Assembly: GCA_943704415.1 (NCBI GenBank)
Contig: CALSCO010000113.1
Coordinates: 1-64,000, forward strand
DNA length: 64,000 nucleotides
Direction: 5' to 3'
Source: Parvularia atlantis
Taxonomy: Eukaryota
Part shown: positions 21,133-56,945 of the stretch, one piece after another
How the letters are laid out: the number at the start of each line of letters is the position of its first letter
How positions within the stretch are numbered: the first letter of the stretch is position 1
Notes under the pieces: model-generated
Seen by the model: the letters and a program-made list of their open reading frames with translations, nothing else
Databases searched by the model: none
What the model was told of the DNA's origin: nothing
Program-made: the position numbers and the translations under genes

Positions 21133-24100
21133 ATGATGACGAGCGACGCCGAGGCGTTCTCGGACCTGGAGGACGAGCCAATCTCGACCAAGGTGCGCGG
21201 CGCGGCAGCGGCATCGTCCGGCAGTTCACGGGAAGCGCGGAAACGACGCAGATCCTCAAGTCCGGCTGGCTGGTCAAGCAGGGCGGCGGGCACAAGGCGC
21301 GTGGCTGCGGCCGCACGTCAACGCAGCGCTGACGCGCGGGGCCGCTCAGAGCTGGAAGAAGCGCTGGTTCGTGCTGACAAGCAGCTACCTCAAGTACTTC
21401 AAGAGCGAACGCGTGCGCTGCGCCGTGTGACGCGTCACCTCGCTCACCTCACGCATCGTCGGCGCGCGCCGCAGGCCACCGAGGCGCCGCAGGGCATCAT
21501 CTACCTGCGCGCAGTGAGCAAGATCGAGCGCACGGACGATGGCCGCAGCGTCGGCAAGACGCCGCTCGAGGCCTTCGCCGTCAGCACACCCGAGCGCGTC
21601 TACATCATCTGCGGCCAGACAGACGCCGAGGTCACGGCCTGGATCGACGCCATCCGCGCCGCCCTGCCCAACAACGGCGTCGGCCTCCAGCCGGCTGAGA
21701 TTGTCAAGCGCGGCTACCTCACAAAGCAGGGCGGCGCGATCAAGGCGCGGCAATCGCGCATCCCACGCATCGGCTCACGCGCGCGCCGGCCACTCTCGCG
21801 CAGTCCTGGAAGCGGCGCTGGTTCGTGCTCCGCAAGGACAACCTGCTCGCGTACTACAAGGATGAGAAGGTGCGCGATCGCCTGCGCGCCGCAACGTGCC
21901 TCGGCTCACACGGCCGTTGCAGGAGTCGATCCCGCTCGGCACGGTCGACCTCGAGAAGGTGTCCGAGGTCCGGCTCGCCTCCGACAAGGTCCCAGCACAG
22001 CGGCGTGTGCGTGCGCGGATGCGCTGACGCGCCGTGCGTGCAGCTCGGCAAGGAGTTTGCATTTGAGCTCGTCACGGCCGAGCGTGTCTACGGCATCTAC
22101 GCCGCCGCGCGCGAGGAGATGGAGGAGTGGATGCACATGTTGTTGCAGATCGTCGGTGACGTCGCAGGCGAGCGTGCGTCATCCACGCGCGCGCCCCGCC
22201 TTCCCCCCGGCTGTGCACGACTGACCTCGCGACTTGGCAGCGGCCGGGACGAGCCCCGGCGGCGCCGCACGGCCCGGGCGGCAGTCGATGATCGAGGCGC
22301 TGGACGACGACGAGCAGCCGCTAACGCTCGACGAGGTCAATAGCTTCATCCGCTCCGACACGGTGCGGCGGCCGCGCTCTCGCGCGCACGCTCGCCTGAC
22401 GCGTGCCCGTGCGCGCCAGCGGATCACGAAGGAGGGCTTCCTGACCAAGCAAGGTGGCAGCATCAAGGTGCGCGCGGGCACCGCTCGCGCTCGCGTGTCT
22501 GACGCCGCACGCGCGCGCGCAGTCCTGGAAGAAGCGCTGGTTCGTGCTGCGCGAGGCCACGCTGGCGTACTACCAGGACGAGAAGGTGCGCTTTGTGCGA
22601 AGCAGCTCGTGGAAGGGGCTAACGCACACCCTTCGCGCACGCAGGAGTCGACGCCGCTCGGGCTCATCCCGCTGACGACGTGCCGCTCGTTCCAGCTCGC
22701 GTCGAAGAAGGCGCGTACTCGGTCGATGCCGCCCGCGTGACCGTAGCGCTGACGCGCGTGCATCAGGTGTCCAAGTCCAACACGTTCGAGATCACGACCG
22801 ACAGCCGCACGTACTATGTCTCGGCCGCCAACGAGGAGGACATGTGGGACTGGATCCGCGTGCTGCAGGACGCGATGACGCGCAACTCGCAGTGCGTCGG
22901 GGCGCGGTCGGTGGGCACGTGCGCGGTGAGCTGACGGCGCCGTGCAAGGGACCCCTCGGTCAACTCGGCCGAGTTGCGTGCGCTTGAGAAGGCCGCCGAA
23001 CTCGCGGCGCAGAAGAAGGCGCTGCAGCTCAAGGTGATTCGGCGCGCGGGCATCAAGAAGCTCGAGAAGCTGCAGGTGCGCCGTGCCACCCGCGTGGACG
23101 GGCAGCAACTGACGCGCAGAGCAGACGATGGTCAGGCGAGCGTCGCGCGCGTCCGACTTCAAGCGCCCGAGCAAACGCTCGAGCTCAGTGCTGCGCTCCG
23201 GCTGGGCCGCGCCGATCGTCGCGCACGAGCAGAAGCTGGCCGAGGACAAGGGTGCGCGGCAGGACTGTGCGCGCGTGGCGGAGCGCCGGTTGATCGCGTC
23301 GCAGGCACGCTCGAGGAGCAGCTGCGCGTGCTCCAGGCGCAGACGAATCAGACGGAGGAGCTGCGTGAGCAGATCCGGGTGCGTTCGCTCGCAGCGGTGT
23401 GCGCTGCTGTGCAAGGCTGAGCCCTGCGCAGGCGATGCAAAGCGAGATCGACCGCATGGCCGCGCAGCTGTCGATGGCGCAGACCAGCAGCGGCACGTTT
23501 GACAGTGCGCTCGGGGCGGCGTGTCGCCGGGGTGACACAGGCTGACGGTGCTGGCAGCGCGCTTCGTGAACGCGTCGATCGAAGACGATGACGACGAGAC
23601 GCCGATCGCCTGGGCGCGCGCCGTCAAGGACTACGTGCCGAACGGTGCGCCCGCAACGTGCCTGGGCGCGCCGCGCGTGGTGCGCCGACTCTGAGCGTGG
23701 CTGCGCCAGCGTACGACGACACCGCGCTTGTGTTCAAGGCCGGCGACATCATCGCGATCACACAGCGCAGCAGCAGCGGCCAGTACACGGGCCTGCTGGG
23801 CGGGCGCAAGGCACGCACGCCTCTCGCGAGCACGGCACGGCTTAGACGCTGACGTGCGCCGCAGGGCGTGTTCCCCTACCGGTTTGTCGAGGAGCTGGAC
23901 GCGGAGGAGGCAAAGCGCGCAAAGCAGGACTTTGCCGCCGAGGCCTCCGCGACATCGCCCGGCGGCGCCAACGGCAGAGACCCGTGGAACGTGCGTGCCT
24001 ACCGGGACGGGCCCAGGCGGCGGGCACTGACGTTGCGTGGACGTGCAGGACAAGCTCGACGACGCCGCGCGCTCGCTCTTTGCCATGTACGACAGCGACG

Positions 24101-24372
24101 GCGACGGCTTCATGACCAAGCTCGACTTTTTCGAGTTCCTGTACGAGTTTGGCAAGACGTACCTGACGGATGTGCAGGTGCGCGCGCGTGTGTGTGTGGT
24201 GCGGGCGTGCAGTCGTTGTGACGCGGAGCGAACGTCGCAGGTCGAGCGCTGCTGGGCCGAGGTCGACCAGAGCAGGCGCGGCATGGTCAGCTGCCAGGAG
24301 TTCAGCCGCGGCGTGAAGAAGCTGGACGAGGTCGAGTTCTACGCCGACTGGAGTCCGGGCGACCTTGTGTGA
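21133..24372 (+). CDS. Triple-PH, coiled-coil, SH3 and EF-hand protein
   Basis: Three PH domains (KSGWLVKQGGGHK|SWKKRWFVL; KRGYLTKQGGAIK|SWKRRWFVL; KEGFLTKQGGSIK|SWKKRWFVL). SH3 (ARAVKDY...LVFKAGDII...GRK|GVFPYRFVE). EF-hand (FAMYDSDGDGFMTKLDF). Confidence 0.88.
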
Positions 24373-24432
24373 GCGGGCGGAGGGGGAGGTTGCCCGCCGA
24401 GTGCGCGCTTCATTGTTGCGGATCTGAACGCG

Positions 24433-25403
24433 ATGTCGCTGCCGGTGCCGCGCGCGCGGCCGTCGCACATGGGCCGCTCGGTGTCGTGGTCAGGTGGGCG
24501 CGACGGGCCGGACGGCGGCGAGACGATCGGGCCGCGCCTGCCGCGCTCGCCGCTCGCGCTGGGCAGCAGCATCGCCGGCGGCGACCTTGCGAGTGCGCTC
24601 AGCGTGGGCTCGGCGTCGTCGCCGGTGCTCTCGTCGGCCTCGCCGGCCACGCCGCTGCTGCTGGCTGGACGCATCTCGCCGGGGCGCACGCCATCGCCGC
24701 AGCTGCCGCAGCCGCCGCAGCCGCCGCGCCGCGGCCGCGCCGAGACGGGCGCTGGGGTGGGTGCGCGGCAGCCCAACGTGGAGATCTACGGCTTTGTGCT
24801 GTACCTGGGCTCGTTCGTGGGCTACGGTGCGGCCGATGCGCGCGCAGACGATGCGCGGGTGCTGACGCGCGCGTGCGCACGCACGTGTGTGTGTGTGGGG
24901 GGGGGGGGGGGGGGGCCGCAGCCGCGTTCATCCTGTGGGCGTACCTGCCAGACGACGTGCTGCACCGCCTTGGTATCACCTACTACCCGAGCAAGTGCGC
25001 CGCGACGGAGCGGGTGGCCGCGGCGCAGCTGACCGGGCGTGCGATGCGCAGGTGGTGGGCGCTCAGCCTGCCCGTGTACGTTCTCGTCCTGGCCGGGTTC
25101 GTCGTCCTGTTCTACGTCGCCTACAGCCTCATCGCGACTGTGCCGCTCGACTCGATCCACGCGCTGACGGACGAGCACGCCAACGTGATTGAGAATCTGG
25201 GCTCGCAGACGTTCAAGCACGAGGACAAGGTGCCCGAGCTGCTCGACATCCCCATCTCGGTCGTCAACAAGTGCCTCTTCCAGGTGCGCACACACGCTTA
25301 CGCTGCGTGCGCTGTGCCGATGTGCCTGACGTCGCACCAGGGCGTGAGCACGCGCGACGGGCCGGGCGGGACAGCGGCCGCGGCGCGCGAGGGCCAGCTG
25401 TAG
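24433..25403 (+). CDS. PIGP: GPI-GlcNAc transferase subunit P (PIG-P/Gpi19) with an N-terminal low-complexity extension
   Basis: EIYGFVLYL, FILWAYLPDDVLHRLGITYYPSK|WWALSLP, VPELLDIPISVVNKCLF. Confidence 0.93.
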
Positions 25404-29315: not shown

Positions 29316-30521
29316 TCACCACTGCTCGGCGAGCCACTCGAGCCAGCGGCCGTGCGCCTGGCCCCGCGCGAGCAGCACGTCGTCGTCGCCCTCGCGCAGC
29401 CGCGGCCACAGGCTCACGCGCAGCTCGGCGATGCCCGGCGTCGCGCCGTCCTCCATCCGCAGCCACGCGAGCGGGCGCTCGGGTGTTGCGGCCGCGCCGG
29501 CCGCGTGCAGCTGCGCTTGGATGTCGTCGCGGTCGCCGGGGCTCAGGTACGGCCAGATGTACGAGTGGTGCACGATCGTGAGCCGCGGTGCCGCTGCCTC
29601 GCCCTGTGCCTCGTGCCACGCCGCCAGCTCGGCGCGCAGGAACGAGCACGCGTCCTGCTCGCGCACGGGCGCTGGGTCGACCGCCGCCGCCGCCAGCGCC
29701 GCGTTGAGCGTGCGGAAGCGCTCGGTCAGGTCGGGCCAGACGTAGGCCTGCAGCAGCCGGCGCGCATCGGCGCTGGTGACGTCGACGGGGGCGAGATCGC
29801 AGCCGAGACGCGACACGACGCGGAACCGGCTGTGGGGCGCGTCCGTGCCCGCAAACGCCGCCGGCACGTCGCCCGCGCGCCACTCGGGGCGGATGACCAC
29901 CGGCGCGTCCGGCACGCCCCACGTCCACGTGCGCGCGCCGTGGTACTCGTAGCGGTACTTGTCGAGGCGCAGGATGAGGCCCGCGCTCGAGCCGATCTCG
30001 CGCAGGGCGAGCGGCAGCTTGGCCCCGAAGCGCGCCCAGACGTACAGCAGGCTCGGCAGGAGGCAGCTGCCGCGCGAGACCTCGTTCGTCTGCTGCGCGC
30101 GGTCGACGAAGGGGCGCAGGAACGCGCGTTCGCGCTGCAGCGTCTCGCTGGCGGCCTCCCACGCCGCATCCGACCACGGCTCGACCTGCTCGCCGGCGGT
30201 CGTCGGCAGGAAGCGCGCGTACTCGGGCGCACGCCCGCTCAGCGCCTGCGCGCCGCGACGGTCACGCGCCCGCCGCGATTTGCCGCCCCGCCCGCGTGCG
30301 CGACGCGCCAGATAGTGCAGCCCGCACGCGACGCGGATGGGCAGATACTCGAGCGCGGCGACGCCGACCCAGTCGCTGCACAGCTCCCAGACGGCACCGG
30401 AGCCGTGCGCAACGTCCTCCGCGCAGCGCTCGAGCAGGCGCCGGTGGAGGTCGCTGCCCATGCGCGCGCTCAGCGCCGCCATCTCGCGGAAGGCGCCGGC
30501 GAGTGCTGTCGCGCTCTGCAT
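29316..30521 (-). CDS. DUF2332-family protein (bacterial type); one in-frame GC-AG intron at 30246-30308
   Basis: QTNEVSRGSCL, LREIGSSAGLILRLDKYRY, GCDLAPVD, LQAYVWPD..RFRTL, C-terminal LARGQAHGRWLEW. Confidence 0.82.
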   Translation of the reverse strand: MQSATALAGAFREMAALSARMGSDLHRRLLERCAEDVAHGSGAVWELCSDWVGVAALEYLPIRVACGLHYLARRARGRGGKSRRARDRRGAQALSGRAPEYARFLPTTAGEQVEPWSDAAWEAASETLQRERAFLRPFVDRAQQTNEVSRGSCLLPSLLYVWARFGAKLPLALREIGSSAGLILRLDKYRYEYHGARTWTWGVPDAPVVIRPEWRAGDVPAAFAGTDAPHSRFRVVSRLGCDLAPVDVTSADARRLLQAYVWPDLTERFRTLNAALAAAAVDPAPVREQDACSFLRAELAAWHEAQGEAAAPRLTIVHHSYIWPYLSPGDRDDIQAQLHAAGAAATPERPLAWLRMEDGATPGIAELRVSLWPRLREGDDDVLLARGQAHGRWLEWLAEQW

Positions 30522-45346: not shown

Positions 45347-47489
45347 ATGCCGACGATGCGCCCCGCGACGAGCGCGTTCCGCGTTGACGCGCCGGGCGTG
45401 GTGCGCCGCGCCGAATCCGCGTCGGTGGGGCGCTGACGTTTCGACCCGCCGCCGCCCGCCGCCGCCGCGCAGACCTACACCGCGGACGAGATCGTGGCGC
45501 AGTACCGCTACGACGCGACGGCCGTGCGCCGTGACGAGGCCACGGGCCAGTACGTCGTCACGCCGACCGAGACCGCGTTCGAGTTCCACACGAGCACGCG
45601 CGTGCCGCGCCTCGGGTGCGTCAACGCAGGTGCGGCACGGCACCGTCGCTCGTCTCACGCCACGCAACGGGGCCGAAAGGCTCATGCTCGTCGGCCTCGG
45701 CGGCAACAACGGCACGACGGTGACAGCGGGCGTGCTCGCGAACCGGCTGTGCGTCGCGCGACGGCCGTGCGCCGCGGTGTCGTTCTCACGCACTGGCACG
45801 CGCGCGCCAGCGGACTGTCGTGGCGCACGCGCTCGGGCCTGCAGAAGGCCAACTACTACGGCTCGCTCACGCAGGCCTCGACGCTGCACCTTGGCCGCGA
45901 CGCCGATGGGCACGACGTGCACGTGCCCTTCAGTCAGATCCTGCCGATGGTGCACCCGAACGACCTCGTCGTCGGCGGCTGGGACATCAGCGGCCTCGAC
46001 CTCGCCGCGGCGATGGAGCGCGCGCAGGTGCTCGAGCCGGACCTGCAGCGGCAGCTCGCGCCGACGATGCGCGCGATGGCGCCGTGGCCGTCGGTCTGCT
46101 ACCCGGACTTTATCGCCGCAAACCAAGCCGAGCGCGCCGACAACGTGCTGCCGGGCTCAAAGCGCGAGCACCTCGAGCGCGTGCGCAGCGACATACGGTT
46201 CGCGCGCGCGCGCGCGCGGTGGCGCGGGGCGATGGCGGCTGACATGACGCTCGGGCGCAGGCGCTTCAAGGGCGACAACGCGCTCGACGCAGTTGTCGTG
46301 CTCTGGACGGCCAACACCGAGCGCTTTGCCGAGCTCGTGCCGGGCGTGAACGACACCGCGGACAGGTGCGCGCGCACCGCACCGACGCCGTCAGCGGCCG
46401 ACTTGTGCCGACGCACGCACGTGCAGCCTACTCGCGGCCATTGAGCGCGGCGAACGCGAGATCGCCCCGTCGACCATCTTCGCCGTCGCGTGCATCCTCG
46501 AGGGCGTGCCGTTCATCAACGGGTCGCCGCAAAACACGTTTGTGCCGGGCTGCGTCGAGCTCGCGGAGCGGCACCAGGTGCGTGCCGCGCAGCCGCCGCC
46601 TCTGCACAGCTGACCTTGGCGAGCCAGTCGTTCATCGCCGGCGACGACTTCAAGAGCGGCCAGACCAAGATGAAGTCGGTGCTGGTCGACTTTCTCGTCG
46701 GCGCGGGCATCAAGCCGCTCTCGATCACGAGCTACAACCACCTGGGCAACAACGACGGGCGGGTGCGCGCGCGCGCGCGCGCGCGCATCTGACAGGAGCT
46801 CAGCGCTCGGCCGCACGCGCAGAACCTCTCGGCGCCGTCGCAGTTCCGCTCCAAGGAGATCTCGAAGAGCAACGTCGTCGACGACATGGTCGCGTCCAAC
46901 CCGATCCTGTACGGCCCCGGCGAGCACCCGGATCACGTCGTCGTAATCAAGTACGTGCCCGCGGTCGGCGACAGCAAGGTGTGATCCGCATGCGCGTGCA
47001 CGGCTCGCGCGCAACGCTCACATGCTGTGCACTCAGCGCGCCCTAGACGAGTACTACAACGAGATCTTCCTGGGCGGGCGCAACACGATCGCGATGCACA
47101 ACACGTGCGAGGACAGGTGCGTGCTCGCTTGCGCCGCGGCTAGCTCGCGCCTGACACACCGGGCACGCAGCCTGCTCGCCGCGCCGCTCATCATCGACCT
47201 CGCCATCCTCGCCGAGCTCTGCACGCGCATCCGCTACCGCCAGTTCCCGCACAAGCACGCCAACGCCAACGCCTACGCCAACGGCAACGGCCATATCGAC
47301 AGCGCGACCCTGCACGGCCTCTACCCGGTGCTCTCGGTCCTGTCGTACCTGCTCAAGGCGCCCAGGGTCCGCCGCGGCGCGCCCGTCGTCAACTCGCTGT
47401 TCAAGCAGCGCGCCGCGCTCGAGAACCTGTTCCGGGCGTGCGTGGGCCTGCCGCCGCAGAGCGACCTGCGGCTGGAGGAGCGTTTGTGA
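45347..47489 (+). CDS. INO1: Inositol-3-phosphate synthase
   Basis: [76 protein letters not shown]. Confidence 0.98.
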
Positions 47490-47846
47490 CGCGGGCTGAG
47501 TTCTTAATGTTGAAAGTTTGAGCGCACTGCAGTGGCACTTTTGTTACGGCGTTCGGATGCGCTTCGGGCGTCGCCCTCGGCTGCGGCCCGCGCGCCTCGG
47601 CGTCGATGGCCGCATGCGCGGCGACGGGCCACGTGTTCCTGCACGTGCCGCGGTCCTGCGTGTGAGCGGGGCGGCAGCGAAAGGAATCGGCCGGGTGACT
47701 GTCGTGCACAAGCCTATGAATCCACTGAACGCCGCTGAGGCGGCATCGGCCGTGTCGGCGTCGAGCGCCGACGACCTGGCGAGTGCCGACCTGCTTACGT
47801 TGTATGCCTGCGAGAGTCGTGCATGTATTCTCTCTGTGACTGACGC

Positions 47847-48864
47847 TCACGGCTCCGTCACAAACCGCACGAGCTCGTCCATGAACCGTTGCGGCTGCTC
47901 GGCGTGGACCCAGTGCCCTGTACGTGCGTGCGCACGCGTGCGTGCCACGTGAATGAACTTGCCGCCGCGCTGCCCGGCGTTGCCGCACCGGCGTCAATGC
48001 CGACAAAGGCCGTGCGCGCTGACGGGAAGAGCGCGCGGATGATCGGGTGGTGCACGGGGCGGACGTAGCGGCCCTTGCTGCCTGCACCCTGCTGCATGAG
48101 TGCGCGATCACGGTGCGAGCATGCCGCACCGTAGATGATGAGCGCGGGCCGGTCGAATGGGCGCAGAGCCTCGCCCGAGGGCAGAGCGACGGGGAAGGCC
48201 TTGATCTCGTCAATGGCGCGGCTGAGCGCGTCGACGTTGTTGCGCACGACGAGTGCGCCATCGGCCGGGTCGGCCACGAGGTTGGTGAGGAGGAACTGGC
48301 GCACGGCCGAGTCGGGCACGGTCTCGCGCAGGAGCTCGTCGGCGACGCGGCGCGAGGGTACGCGCGCAGCGTGGAGGCGCTGCAGCTCAGCGGCGTAGAA
48401 GGCAAATACGCTGCCGTCGCTGTAGCTAACGGGGGCGATGTCGACGAGCACGACGCGGCGCAGCCGCCCGGGGCGCCACAGGGCCATCAGCGCGGCTGCC
48501 TTGCCGCCCTGCCCGTGGGTGCGCGGATCCGTGTGAGGCGAGCGAGGCGAGCGAGACGCGGCACCATCGAGTGGCCGACGACATCGACCTCGTCCAGCCC
48601 CAGCCGCGCCAGTAGCGCGTCGACGTCGGCGGCCATCTCGGCGTAGGCCTGCCCGGGCACGTACGGCGCATGCGGGCTCTCGCCGTGGTTGCGCAGGTCG
48701 CAGGCGACGACGGGCGCACCGAGCGTGCGCGCGAGGGCCTTCTGCAGCGACTTCCAGTTGCCCTTGGAGCCGAACAGGCCGTGCAGGATCACGAGCGGCA
48801 CGGCCCCGGGCGCGCGCGTCGCGGCCGCCTCGACGGCGCAAGCGAGCGGCACGGGCGCGATCAT
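47847..48864 (-). CDS. ABHD11-like alpha/beta hydrolase
   Basis: ILHGLFGSKGNW, DLRNHGESPH, VGHSM|GGK nucleophile elbow, VDIAPV, RQFLLTNL, GHWVHAEQP. Confidence 0.93.
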
Positions 48865-48907
48865 CGATCAGCAACGGTGTGCGCAGCACTTGTCACTTGA
48901 ACAGCAG

Positions 48908-49289
48908 ATGTCGCGCACGCCTGTGCACTCGCCGTTCGGCGCGTTCCGCCCGTCGCTCGCGCCGCGCGCGCCGTGGACGCCGCTGCAGGTGGTCGTCGTG
49001 GCGGCGATCGCGGCCGTCGTCTTCATCGGTGCGCGCGTGCGCGTCCGCCTGCGGTCGATGGACTCACGTTGCGTCAGGCCCCAAGAAGATCATCCCGCGC
49101 ATCGTCGACACGTTCAAGCAGACGCGCGAGGCCATCGAGGAGGCTGCAGGCGAGAAGCCAGCCGTGCCGACGAACGCGCCGACAAACACGCCGACGAACT
49201 CGACGACGAACGCGACGACGAACGCGACAAGCGCCGCGCCACAGCAGCCTGTCCAGCCGACTCAGCCGAAGCAGCCTCCTCAGGCATGA
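48908..49289 (+). CDS. TatA/TatB-like twin-arginine translocase subunit with an N-terminal presequence-like extension
   Basis: After removing intron 49029-49077: MSRTPVHSPFGAFRPSLAPRAPW, TM LQVVVVAAIAAVVFI, hinge GPKKIIP, amphipathic helix RIVDTFKQTREAIEEA, disordered tail. Confidence 0.62.
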
Positions 49290-49311: not shown

Positions 49312-50454
49312 CTACCGTTTCGCTCGCTTCACCCGCTGATGCAGCAGCGCCAGCCGCGCGTCGCCACCAGCGCCGAGCCCCGCCGTGCTGCCCGCCGCGA
49401 GCCCGCGCGGCACAATCGGCTCGAGCAGCGCGTCGGCCGCGCGCGCCGGCGCACCGAGGGCCTCGCCGGGCCGCCAGCCCATGCGCCGCAGCAGTCGGTT
49501 GCCGACGTTGGCCTCGTCTAGCGGCACGTCGACCCCGCTCACCTCGTCCGGCCCACGCGCGGCCGCCGCGACCTCGTCCAGGTCCGTCCCGACGAGGCGA
49601 CGCCGCTCGGCCGCGCGGTCGCGGTACCCTGGCGGCGCGGGCGGCGCGGCCGCGGTGTCGCCGAGCAGCGTGCGCTTGAGCTGGCGCAGACCCTGGCGCC
49701 ACGGCACGGCGCCCTCGACAACGGGAGCAGCAGCACCAGAAGCAGCAGGCGCAGCCGTGTCGGGCAGGTGCAGCGACACGAAGCGTCGCCACAGACAGCC
49801 GTCGCACACCGGCTGCGCGGGCGGGTGCCAGTGCGCCTGCAGCGCCGTCGAGCCGATCTCGACGACGTCGCCGTGCGCCAGCAGCCGCGGCGGGGCGCCA
49901 CCACCGGTGTCGCGGCGGTCGGCGACGCCGAAGCGCGCCTCGTGCGGGTCGTAGAAGAAGCTCGCGTGCAGCTCGGCCACGTCGTCGTCGCCGTCAAGCA
50001 CGATGCGTGGACCAGCAGCCGCCGTCGCGGCCGGCGTCCGGCCCACGTCCGCGCCGAGGCTGCTGACGACGTACAGCGCGTTGGCCGGCACGGCGGATGC
50101 GCGCGTCGCCTGCACGACGAGCCGGAGCTGCGGCGGCCAGACGTCCGCGTCGACGCCGTGCCAGTCGGGCAGCAGCACGCCCGAGTCGGCATCACGCCAC
50201 AGGCCGTACGTCGCGTCGAAGACGGCGCGATCGCGCGCGTCCTCTGTCGTCGCTGCTGCTGCGTCCGCTGCTGTCGAAGCATCCGCAAACGGGTAGATGT
50301 ACGCGAGCTGCTCGTGGTCGAAGTAGAAGTAGGCGCCGGGCGCGTCCGGGTGGAAGCACCACTCGGTGCTCTGCGACTCCCAGAAGCCGCGCGCCTCGCT
50401 GTAGACAAAGTCGCTCGGCGCCGCGTGGTCGGGCTCATCGGCAGCAGCACTCAT
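49312..50454 (-). CDS. AGGF1-like OCRE/FHA/G-patch protein (intronless)
   Basis: Aromatic OCRE-like N-terminus. FHA-like segments VGRT, VAELHASFFY and LAHGDVVEIGST. Then CDGC, YRDRAAERR, and G-patch NVGNRLLRRMGWRPGEALG...AGLG. Confidence 0.85.
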   Translation of the reverse strand: MSAAADEPDHAAPSDFVYSEARGFWESQSTEWCFHPDAPGAYFYFDHEQLAYIYPFADASTAADAAAATTEDARDRAVFDATYGLWRDADSGVLLPDWHGVDADVWPPQLRLVVQATRASAVPANALYVVSSLGADVGRTPAATAAAGPRIVLDGDDDVAELHASFFYDPHEARFGVADRRDTGGGAPPRLLAHGDVVEIGSTALQAHWHPPAQPVCDGCLWRRFVSLHLPDTAAPAASGAAAPVVEGAVPWRQGLRQLKRTLLGDTAAAPPAPPGYRDRAAERRRLVGTDLDEVAAAARGPDEVSGVDVPLDEANVGNRLLRRMGWRPGEALGAPARAADALLEPIVPRGLAAGSTAGLGAGGDARLALLHQRVKRAKR

Positions 50455-54643: not shown

Positions 54644-56140
54644 CTACTTGGACTTGAACACAACATGATGGACGCGGTTGGTGAGGAGGGGAGGGGGTCT
54701 GTACAGGGAGCGGTTCTCCTTCTCCATCGTCGTCAGCACGGCCGACTTGCGAAGGGAACCGCCCCCGTGTGTGGTGTGGGTAAAGTAGAACGAAGCGTGT
54801 TGATGATTCTTCTTCTCAACGGGCTCGGTTGAGAGGTGGCTCAGCGGCACACCGAGCTTGGCGCACGTGCGCAAATGGTCACCGAGATGGGCGATCAGGG
54901 CATGGAGGTACGGTGTCACCGGCACAGGCGCGCCGGCGATGACTTTGTCCGTGTCCTCCATGCGGGCGGGAGCATCTTGGTCAACAGCCGGCATGGGCTG
55001 ACCGAAGACGAGATCAACGACGTGGAGGTGTGTGCACATTCGCGCATGCGGCTGAGCGCGTGCCTCACCCGTGCGCTGCATCAGAACTCTGCACGTGCCT
55101 TCCTGCGCGGCCTCGCGACGTCGGGCAGTGACCCTGGCCGCCCGTACGCGCGCGAATTGGGACACGTTCATCGTCGTTTATGACGCGGCCAAGTCCAGCT
55201 TCTGCAGCAGCGCGTACTTGGCCGGCCGGCGCAGGCTCGTCCAGTTCAGAGATCCTGTGAGACGTCAGTGCACGTGCGCGTGAATGCGTGAGCGCACCGG
55301 ACGCCGTGCCCGTCGCCTCGTCACGCGACGCCCAAAAGTTGATGGTCACACCGACATCGGCAGCGGCGGTGGTGAGGGCGGCAACTGCGGTCGCGTGGCA
55401 TGTGCGCGAACGCGTGGCGGACATGGTTGTAGTCCTTGCCGCACGCGAGCAGGGCGACGGGCAGCTGCGCGTCGGGCGTGCGGTTCATGTCGGTCCCGGT
55501 CACGATCGCGACAGTGACCATCGTGTGGGTGACCGAGCCCACGCGGCGGCCGTCGCCCGAAAACTACCCGGCGAGGTATGAGTGCACGCACAGGTCATGC
55601 GCGCGCGCACTTTCAGCAGGGGGCGCGTCGGCTTGGGTACCATGCCCCGCAGCACGTGCGTCAGCAACGGGCGCAGCGGGCGGCGCCAGGCGTCGTTTAG
55701 GCCCTCCACGCGCTATATCGGCACCGCGCGCCATCTCCTCCGTCTCGCCGCTTGCGCTCCTCGGCCACTGCGTCGCACGCGATGTTCAGCAGCGAGCAGA
55801 GTGCCGCACGCTTGTGCACCCCGATACTCGCGCGCCATTTCAGGCGTGAGCGCGGCCAGGGCGCGGTACGCGTCGCGGCTGCAGCCTGTGCTGTCCAGCA
55901 CGTGGACGGCCTTGGCGAGGCGGGCACGGGCCTCCTTGTTCTGCAAGCGTGTCTCAGAGACCAGCGCGACCAGAGCGCGCGCACGCACCGGCATGTCGTT
56001 CGGGCCAAGCGAGTGGTCGTCGTCGAACGTCATGCGCACGCGCTCGCCGGCAAAGTTGGCGTCGATGCCCAGCAGCGTGGCGTCGTCCACGGCATTGCGC
56101 TTGCAGGACTCGTTGAATGCCGCACGTGCGTCGCTGGTCA
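54644..56140 (-). pseudogene. Degenerate RAG1/Transib-like DDE transposase
   Basis: Fragments across frames: LDSTGCSRDAYRALAAL, FSGDGRRVG...MVTVAIV (first Asp), INFW, NWTSL...LLQKL, and VTPYLHALIAHL...LSTEPVEKKNH...TTHGG (resembles RAG1 TNYFHKTLAH...SEGNE). Has in-frame stops, frameshifts and an apparent deletion of the central Asp/CxxC region. Confidence 0.6.
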
Positions 56141-56945
56141 CAGAGCGCCGCACGCCCCACACGTCTTGGACGTGTACTCCTCCGTGCATGTAATCACCTC
56201 ACACCGCGGGTGCTCGCGCGACTTGTGTAGCAGCAGCATCCAAAACGTGTAGTGGGAGAGCGTGAGCAGGCGCCGCGCCGTCTTGCTCCGGATCCGCCGC
56301 GCCCCGCGCCGGACCATCTGCTGCGTCTCGAACCGCGGCAGCAGCACCACGCGGTAGTTGCGGCACAGCCACAGGGCCAGCTTGCGGTGCATCTCGTCGA
56401 CCAGGTTGCGAATCCGCTGCAGAAGGCGCCGGCCCGCGCGACGCAGTCGGTACCGCCGCCGCTTGCGCGTCTCGCGCGCATCCATCTTGCCCTGCAACTT
56501 GTCGTACGCGCGGCACAGACGGTACACCCGCCCGATGTCGCCTGGCCCCACTCGACCACGCGCCCGTCCGCGTCGTAGCCCGTCATGAACGTGCGCACGC
56601 CCAGGTCCAGCGCAATCACGCCGTGCAGTCGGCCCGGAAGACCAGCGGTTGCGGCATGCACAGGTACTGTGCGCACCAACCGCGCGTCGCACGCCTTCTT
56701 CTGGCCGTGGCTGGGGAAGACGCGCAGCTTGAGCGTCTTGAGCGGCTGCGCAGCCTCGTCCACGTCGTCGTCAGGGTTCGGCTCGTCCGCGTGCGGCTCA
56801 GACGGCGTTGTCGGCGTCTTCTTGGTGCGGCGACGCTTCTTGTGCGGCGGCTGTTGCGTCTGCACGGCGGCGGCGGCGTGGCCGTTCTGGCGCGCCACAG
56901 AGTGCGTGACGACGGCGAGGAGGTCGTGCAGTGCGTGGATGGGAC
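56138..56945 (-). pseudogene. IS607-derived Fanzor2/TnpB nuclease remnant preceded by the C-terminus of a serine-recombinase TnpA
   Basis: DLLAVVTHSVARQNG (IS607 TnpA C-terminal helix), KTLKLRVFP, RuvC-I ALDLGVRTFMTGYD, bridge helix RIRNLVDEMHRKLALWLC, LPRFETQQMV, LSHYTF, TEEYTSKTCGACG. Frameshift at about 56545. Truncated before RuvC-III. Confidence 0.88.

Follow-up and report, generated by a model that had tools for sequence, protein, structure and literature searches.

We analyzed a 64,000-nucleotide stretch of DNA (here called the window) and found that positions 48908 to 49289 hold a genuine, expressed, and spliced nuclear gene. The 110-residue product of this gene is, on the evidence of its sequence, TatA/TatB-like in layout, but assignment to that family is not warranted. 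Our best explanation, which we hold to be about as likely as not, is that the protein serves as a divergent subunit of the TatA/TatB type in a mitochondrial twin-arginine translocase (Tat).

The open reading frame runs on the plus strand from an ATG at 48908 to a stop at 49289. Exon 1 (48908..49028, +) contains the start codon, an N-terminal extension, a hydrophobic helix, and the first base of the Gly41 codon, and it is covered from 48866 by a contig of run X1. Exon 2 (49078..49289, +) supplies the rest of a hinge (Pro42, Lys43, Lys44, and Pro47), an amphipathic helix, a tail, and the stop codon. Between them lies a 49-nt GT-AG spliceosomal intron (49029..49077, +) with a GTGCGC donor, a CTCAC branch-like site, and a CAG acceptor; it is built like the rest of the window's consensus introns (145 matches to the pattern, overlaps included). 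In run X1, which is RNA according to the tool's guess, one contig of 352 nt spans 48866 to 49266 and omits exactly these 49 nt. This confirmed the initial annotation, which had placed a spliceosomal intron at the hinge glycine; the intron splits the Gly41 codon. It is retained in run X3, which is DNA-like and colinear with the genomic sequence across the gene. No piece of run X2 crosses the splice junction and, because X2 does not cover the gene, splice support comes from one of the three runs. The spliceosomal intron and the colinear X3 contig together ruled out bacterial contamination. Exon 1 has a third-position GC of 0.97 and exon 2 one of 0.83, compared to 0.57 at second positions; these values fit coding exons in this gene-dense eukaryotic DNA of about 70% GC with short introns.

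The limits of the gene are set by its two neighbors. A divergent gene for an alpha/beta hydrolase (first exon, 48490..48864, −; PF00561, E 1.6e-17) has its start codon 43 nt from that of the 110-residue protein (window 48864-48908), so the latter gene cannot reach far upstream, and an additional upstream exon was ruled out. Downstream, a convergent gene for an AGGF1-like G-patch protein (49312..50454, −) ends after 22 nt. With both sides occupied, the gene model is complete. The X1 contigs of the hydrolase gene and of the 110-residue protein overlap at 48866-48894, which suggests overlapping 5′ ends, as far as contigs that prove neither ends nor strand can do so. Within the hydrolase gene (48129-48894, −), a frame shift near 48490-48560 resembles an intron, yet the listed X1 contig is unspliced through this region.

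The anatomy of the spliced product bore out, feature by feature, what the initial annotation had described. The first 25 residues (48908..48982, +) form a basic and hydroxylated N-terminal extension with 3 Arg, 3 Ser, 2 Thr, and 6 Pro residues and no Asp or Glu. This putative targeting peptide is Pro-rich and weakly amphipathic (moment of 0.25 or less). One short transmembrane helix of 15 residues is predicted at residues 26 to 40 (48983..49027, +), with a mean Kyte-Doolittle value of 2.97 and Gln27 near its start. The annotated GPKK..P hinge is present as Gly41-Pro42-Lys43-Lys44 followed by Pro47, and an amphipathic helix is predicted at about residues 43 to 63 (49083..49145, +). Downstream of the hinge, the hydrophobic moment peaks at 0.57 over an 18-residue stretch; when this segment was shuffled 5,000 times, 183 shuffles did as well or better. 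The medians were 0.57 for 40 bacterial TatA sequences and 0.66 for 56 TatB sequences. The tail, described as unstructured, is a low-complexity stretch of Pro, Thr, Asn, and Ala that derives largely from a 12-nt tandem repeat of 5.1 copies (49168..49228, +) and includes three N-x-S/T sequons (residues 81, 85, and 89). The net charge flanking the predicted membrane helix is +3 on the C-terminal side and +2 on the N-terminal side.

Membership in the TatA/TatB families was assessed with profiles drawn from 80 loci near E. coli TatA and 110 loci chosen from the 150 matches listed in 201 genomes of the same phylum. From 377 cores, clustering at 70% identity gave 96 non-redundant Pseudomonadota sequences (40 TatA-like and 56 TatB-like). 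Built from one bacterial phylum, these profiles may under-score a divergent eukaryotic member; on them, the spliced protein reached 9.6 bits for TatB, 7.3 bits for the combined set, and 1.3 bits for TatA. The TatB score corresponds to an E of 4.7e-5 in a single comparison and would not be significant at whole-proteome scale. A first TatB profile gave 5.6 bits for the spliced and −5.3 bits for the unspliced sequence, so splicing creates the Tat-like signal. No full shuffle out of 3,000 and no natural membrane-helix decoy out of 281 reached 9.6 bits; of 3,000 block shuffles, 2 did. Moreover, the protein ranked first among 1,537 spliced candidates from the window, none of the other 1,536 attaining its score. 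When the Gly-Pro pair was held fixed, 96 of 3,000 shuffles reached 9.6 bits; thus, the bulk of the signal is a hydrophobic helix followed by Gly-Pro. Two unrelated open reading frames scored higher, one among 895 in the window (11.9 bits) and one among 7,345 from other loci (12.5 bits). The former (55716-56198, −; six-frame) has no hydrophobic helix, owes its score to a Gly-Pro..Pro motif and a helix, and was taken as chance. True TatB sequences, left out in turn (19 of the 56 tested), scored 63 to 86 bits on the TatB profile, and TatA sequences scored 9 to 44 bits on it, 38 of the 40 lying above the 110-residue protein.

The hinge scored +12.5 bits on the TatB matrix, and the hinge glycine directly follows the helix, as in the TatA/TatB/TatE family (PF02416), with Gly-Pro as in TatB. 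With the 56 bacterial TatB sequences, the protein shares a 15-residue helix that runs into a Gly-Pro hinge, as well as Ala at −5, a small residue at −8, and a basic residue at +3, but the counterparts of Glu at −13 and Pro at +5 are out of register. All 96 bacterial sequences have a polar residue at −13 from the hinge glycine, where the 110-residue protein has Val, with Gln27 at −14; a hypothetical one-residue insertion would reconcile the two positions. Likewise, Pro occupies +5 in all 56 TatB sequences and +6 in none of the 96, and here it stands at +6. TatB is further characterized by a long helical stretch that continues past the first amphipathic helix; here the helix ends near residue 65 and the Pro/Thr/Asn tail follows. 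With bacterial and mitochondrion-encoded TatA (PF02416; the 52-aa TatA of Andalucia mtDNA), the protein has in common the size and moment of its predicted amphipathic helix, Gln as the polar residue, and a disordered tail; it differs in its low TatA score, in having Ile rather than Phe at −1, and in being nuclear with an intron and an extension. In each of the five registers examined, the sequence of the amphipathic helix scored below zero on the two family matrices. Searches of curated Pfam and NCBIfam, in which each exon and the unspliced frame served as queries, gave no Tat hit. Of the TatA/B layout claimed at the outset, the helix-hinge-helix order stands, while the polar residue and the proline are each one position off and the profile score is low. 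In E. coli, E8 of TatB binds the polar cluster of TatC (PMC13323110), and the TatB Glu has been called essential (PMC6251230).

Further homologue searches were also negative. The unspliced frame with exon 1 produced 131 candidates, not one of which reached an E of 10 or less; the hinge and helix region produced none; exon 2 gave 606 pattern matches in metagenome contigs, none of which was confirmed. Neither exon matched the PDB sequences, and residues 1 to 41 had no usable match in the ESM Atlas. Since the queries were exons or the unspliced frame rather than the spliced protein, these searches are weak evidence of absence.

The host lineage was examined through neighboring genes. The INO1 gene model (45470-47490, +) has eight inferred introns, three of which agree with X1 joints. 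In a FastTree analysis of its protein with 76 of 122 fetched hits, a set biased to fungi and without a named nucleariid, choanoflagellate, filasterean, or apusomonad, INO1 grouped with four environmental proteins (SH-like support of 1.0), and together they were sister to fungi plus ichthyosporeans (0.97). Ten of the 150 hits to the AGGF1-like protein were looked up, comprising 7 animal clusters, 1 fungal cluster, and 2 without a name. These two genes point to a host on the opisthokont side, likely a heterotroph in or near the opisthokonts. The Pfam hits of 140 window open reading frames included no plastid-type family, in keeping with the apparent lack of photosynthesis noted earlier; together with the opisthokont-like neighbors, this ruled out a plastid TatA/B. 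The closest relatives of INO1 (P0001-P0003 and P0122, 74 to 78% identical) and the closest relative of the AGGF1-like protein (P0273) are environmental proteins, pointing to a sister lineage in metagenomes. An INO1 exon retrieved 80 metagenome loci, which are distant (65 to 81% identity to the window INO1 for the best 12 of the 80). No other window gene was found in them at E 1e-4 among the matches listed, and the 110-residue protein had no match better than E 3. A search of viral contigs gave no match.

A nuclear partner of a mitochondrial Tat system is less new than the initial annotation implied: nucleus-encoded mitochondrial TatB has been published for plants, stramenopiles, and cryptists (PMC6251230) and for jakobids (PMC7050145). 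The text of the former report describes TatC-only as the most common mitochondrial arrangement, two TatC proteins of this type as inactive in E. coli, and nuclear genomes as having yielded only TatB, never TatA (PMC6251230). Pairing mitochondrial with bacterial components also failed in that study. In plants, Tat (TatBC) is reported to export the folded Rieske domain (PMC8662606 and PMC13456617, citing Carrie 2016 and Schafer 2020), and, by its title, a preprint describes plant TatA as dually targeted (10.1101/2020.04.06.026997). Like these eukaryotic TatB proteins, the 110-residue protein has a nuclear gene, a short N-terminal helix, an amphipathic helix, and a low-complexity tail, a likeness drawn from descriptions and not from sequence comparison. 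It is half the length of plant At5g43680 TatB (232 aa; PMC13456617) and Andalucia TatB (198 aa; PMC7050145), and it differs from them in its short amphipathic region, in having Gln at −14 instead of Glu, and in its likely opisthokont-side host. The Andalucia TatB gene also has one intron, and jakobid nuclear TatB also has a Pro/Thr-rich terminal stretch. In contrast, jakobid TatA and TatB have their polar residue at −13 (read by eye) and no N-terminal extension, compared with −14 and 25 residues here. If the 110-residue protein is a Tat subunit, its lineage, its extension, and its TatA-like size would be new.

Supplement 2 of PMC10809612 (columns counted by hand) marks tatC but not tatA in Nuclearia simplex, Fonticula alba, and Monosiga brevicollis, so by that listing some unicellular opisthokonts carry an orphan TatC; neither gene is marked for Thecamonas, Capsaspora, or fungi. 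The review PMC7194472 agrees on Monosiga and Capsaspora and, in the portion available, makes no mention of tatC for Nuclearia. We found no report of a nuclear TatA/B from an opisthokont in the available text of the literature covered, including the 2026 review PMC13673990 and 10.1101/2024.01.30.577968; subscription journals and bioRxiv supplements were outside this scope.

According to our model, the N-terminal extension would carry the protein into mitochondria, where insertion into the inner membrane would proceed from the matrix side and give the N-out/C-in topology known from bacteria, which is favored because basic residues follow the helix. Conservative sorting with matrix-side insertion has been described (PMC5855863). 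The short helix would dock on mitochondrion-encoded TatC through Gln27, the amphipathic helix would lie on the matrix face, and the substrate exported by the complex would be the folded Rieske Fe-S domain destined for complex III, as has been reported for plant TatBC. The Rieske substrate is a further assumption, since the twin-arginine motif of Rieske proteins does not track the presence of Tat (PMC6251230). A plain stop-transfer route would give the opposite topology, which is a weak point of the model. The proposal of a missing nuclear partner thus gains from the fitting architecture and the first rank among spliced candidates; against it stand the 9.6 bits, two invariant positions shifted by one, the want of a homologue, the Pro-rich and barely amphipathic extension, and the listed absence of tatC from Thecamonas, Capsaspora, and fungi.

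We would extend the model only hesitantly, as a possibility well short of even, to the unicellular relatives of animals and fungi with orphan mitochondrial tatC, which may hide a nuclear, TatA-sized, presequence-bearing partner too divergent for standard profiles. Their TatC-only systems would then be functional translocases of two subunits, and the 110-residue protein would be the first partner of this kind from the opisthokont side. A divergent nuclear partner from an opisthokont-side protist would be a candidate for testing whether orphan TatC functions, and it would bear on the timing of the replacement of Tat by Bcs1 for Rieske export in the animal and fungal lineage. Should the Tat reading fail, what is left is an ordinary orphan membrane protein.

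Of the other readings, the one that survives best is an unlikely one: a secretory-pathway protein that is lineage-specific and crosses the membrane once, with a short cytosolic N terminus, a signal-anchor helix, a luminal helix, and a glycosylated Thr/Pro/Asn-rich stalk, in which GPKK is a chance likeness. The three sequons and the Thr/Pro-rich tail would suit such a protein, although the sequons lie inside the 12-nt repeat and may be incidental. The Pro-rich N terminus is unlike a helical presequence, and the charge difference across the helix disfavors a luminal C terminus. The shifted Tat signature residues and a TatB score inside the range of unrelated open reading frames are also consistent with this reading, whereas the failure of every membrane decoy to reach that score argues against it.

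Stop-transfer proteins usually carry an acid-free, Arg-containing N terminus ahead of a single helix. The extension and helix would also match a small protein of the mitochondrial inner membrane that has nothing to do with Tat, such as an accessory subunit or assembly factor with a presequence, a stop-transfer helix, and an intermembrane-space tail, and the quick divergence of small proteins of this kind fits the absence of homologues. We judge this distinctly improbable: no Pfam or NCBIfam family of that kind was found on either exon at E up to 10, and the Gly-Pro-basic hinge and the amphipathic helix are left unexplained. A spliced by-product transcript of a bidirectional promoter shared with the hydrolase gene, yielding no functional protein, would agree with the close divergent start codons, the missing homologues, and a splice seen in one run, but it is very improbable given the coding-type third-position GC and the fact that splicing makes of two open frames one coherent protein of the helix-hinge-helix type.

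Elsewhere in the window, where Rfam gave no matches, a gene at 29316-30521 (−) encodes a DUF2332 protein (PF10094, E 1e-75); the family is described as bacterial, and horizontal transfer into a eukaryote is possible. Finally, EF-hand and PIG-P domains occupy adjacent overlapping open reading frames at 24031-25400 (+), representing either one fused gene or two close genes.
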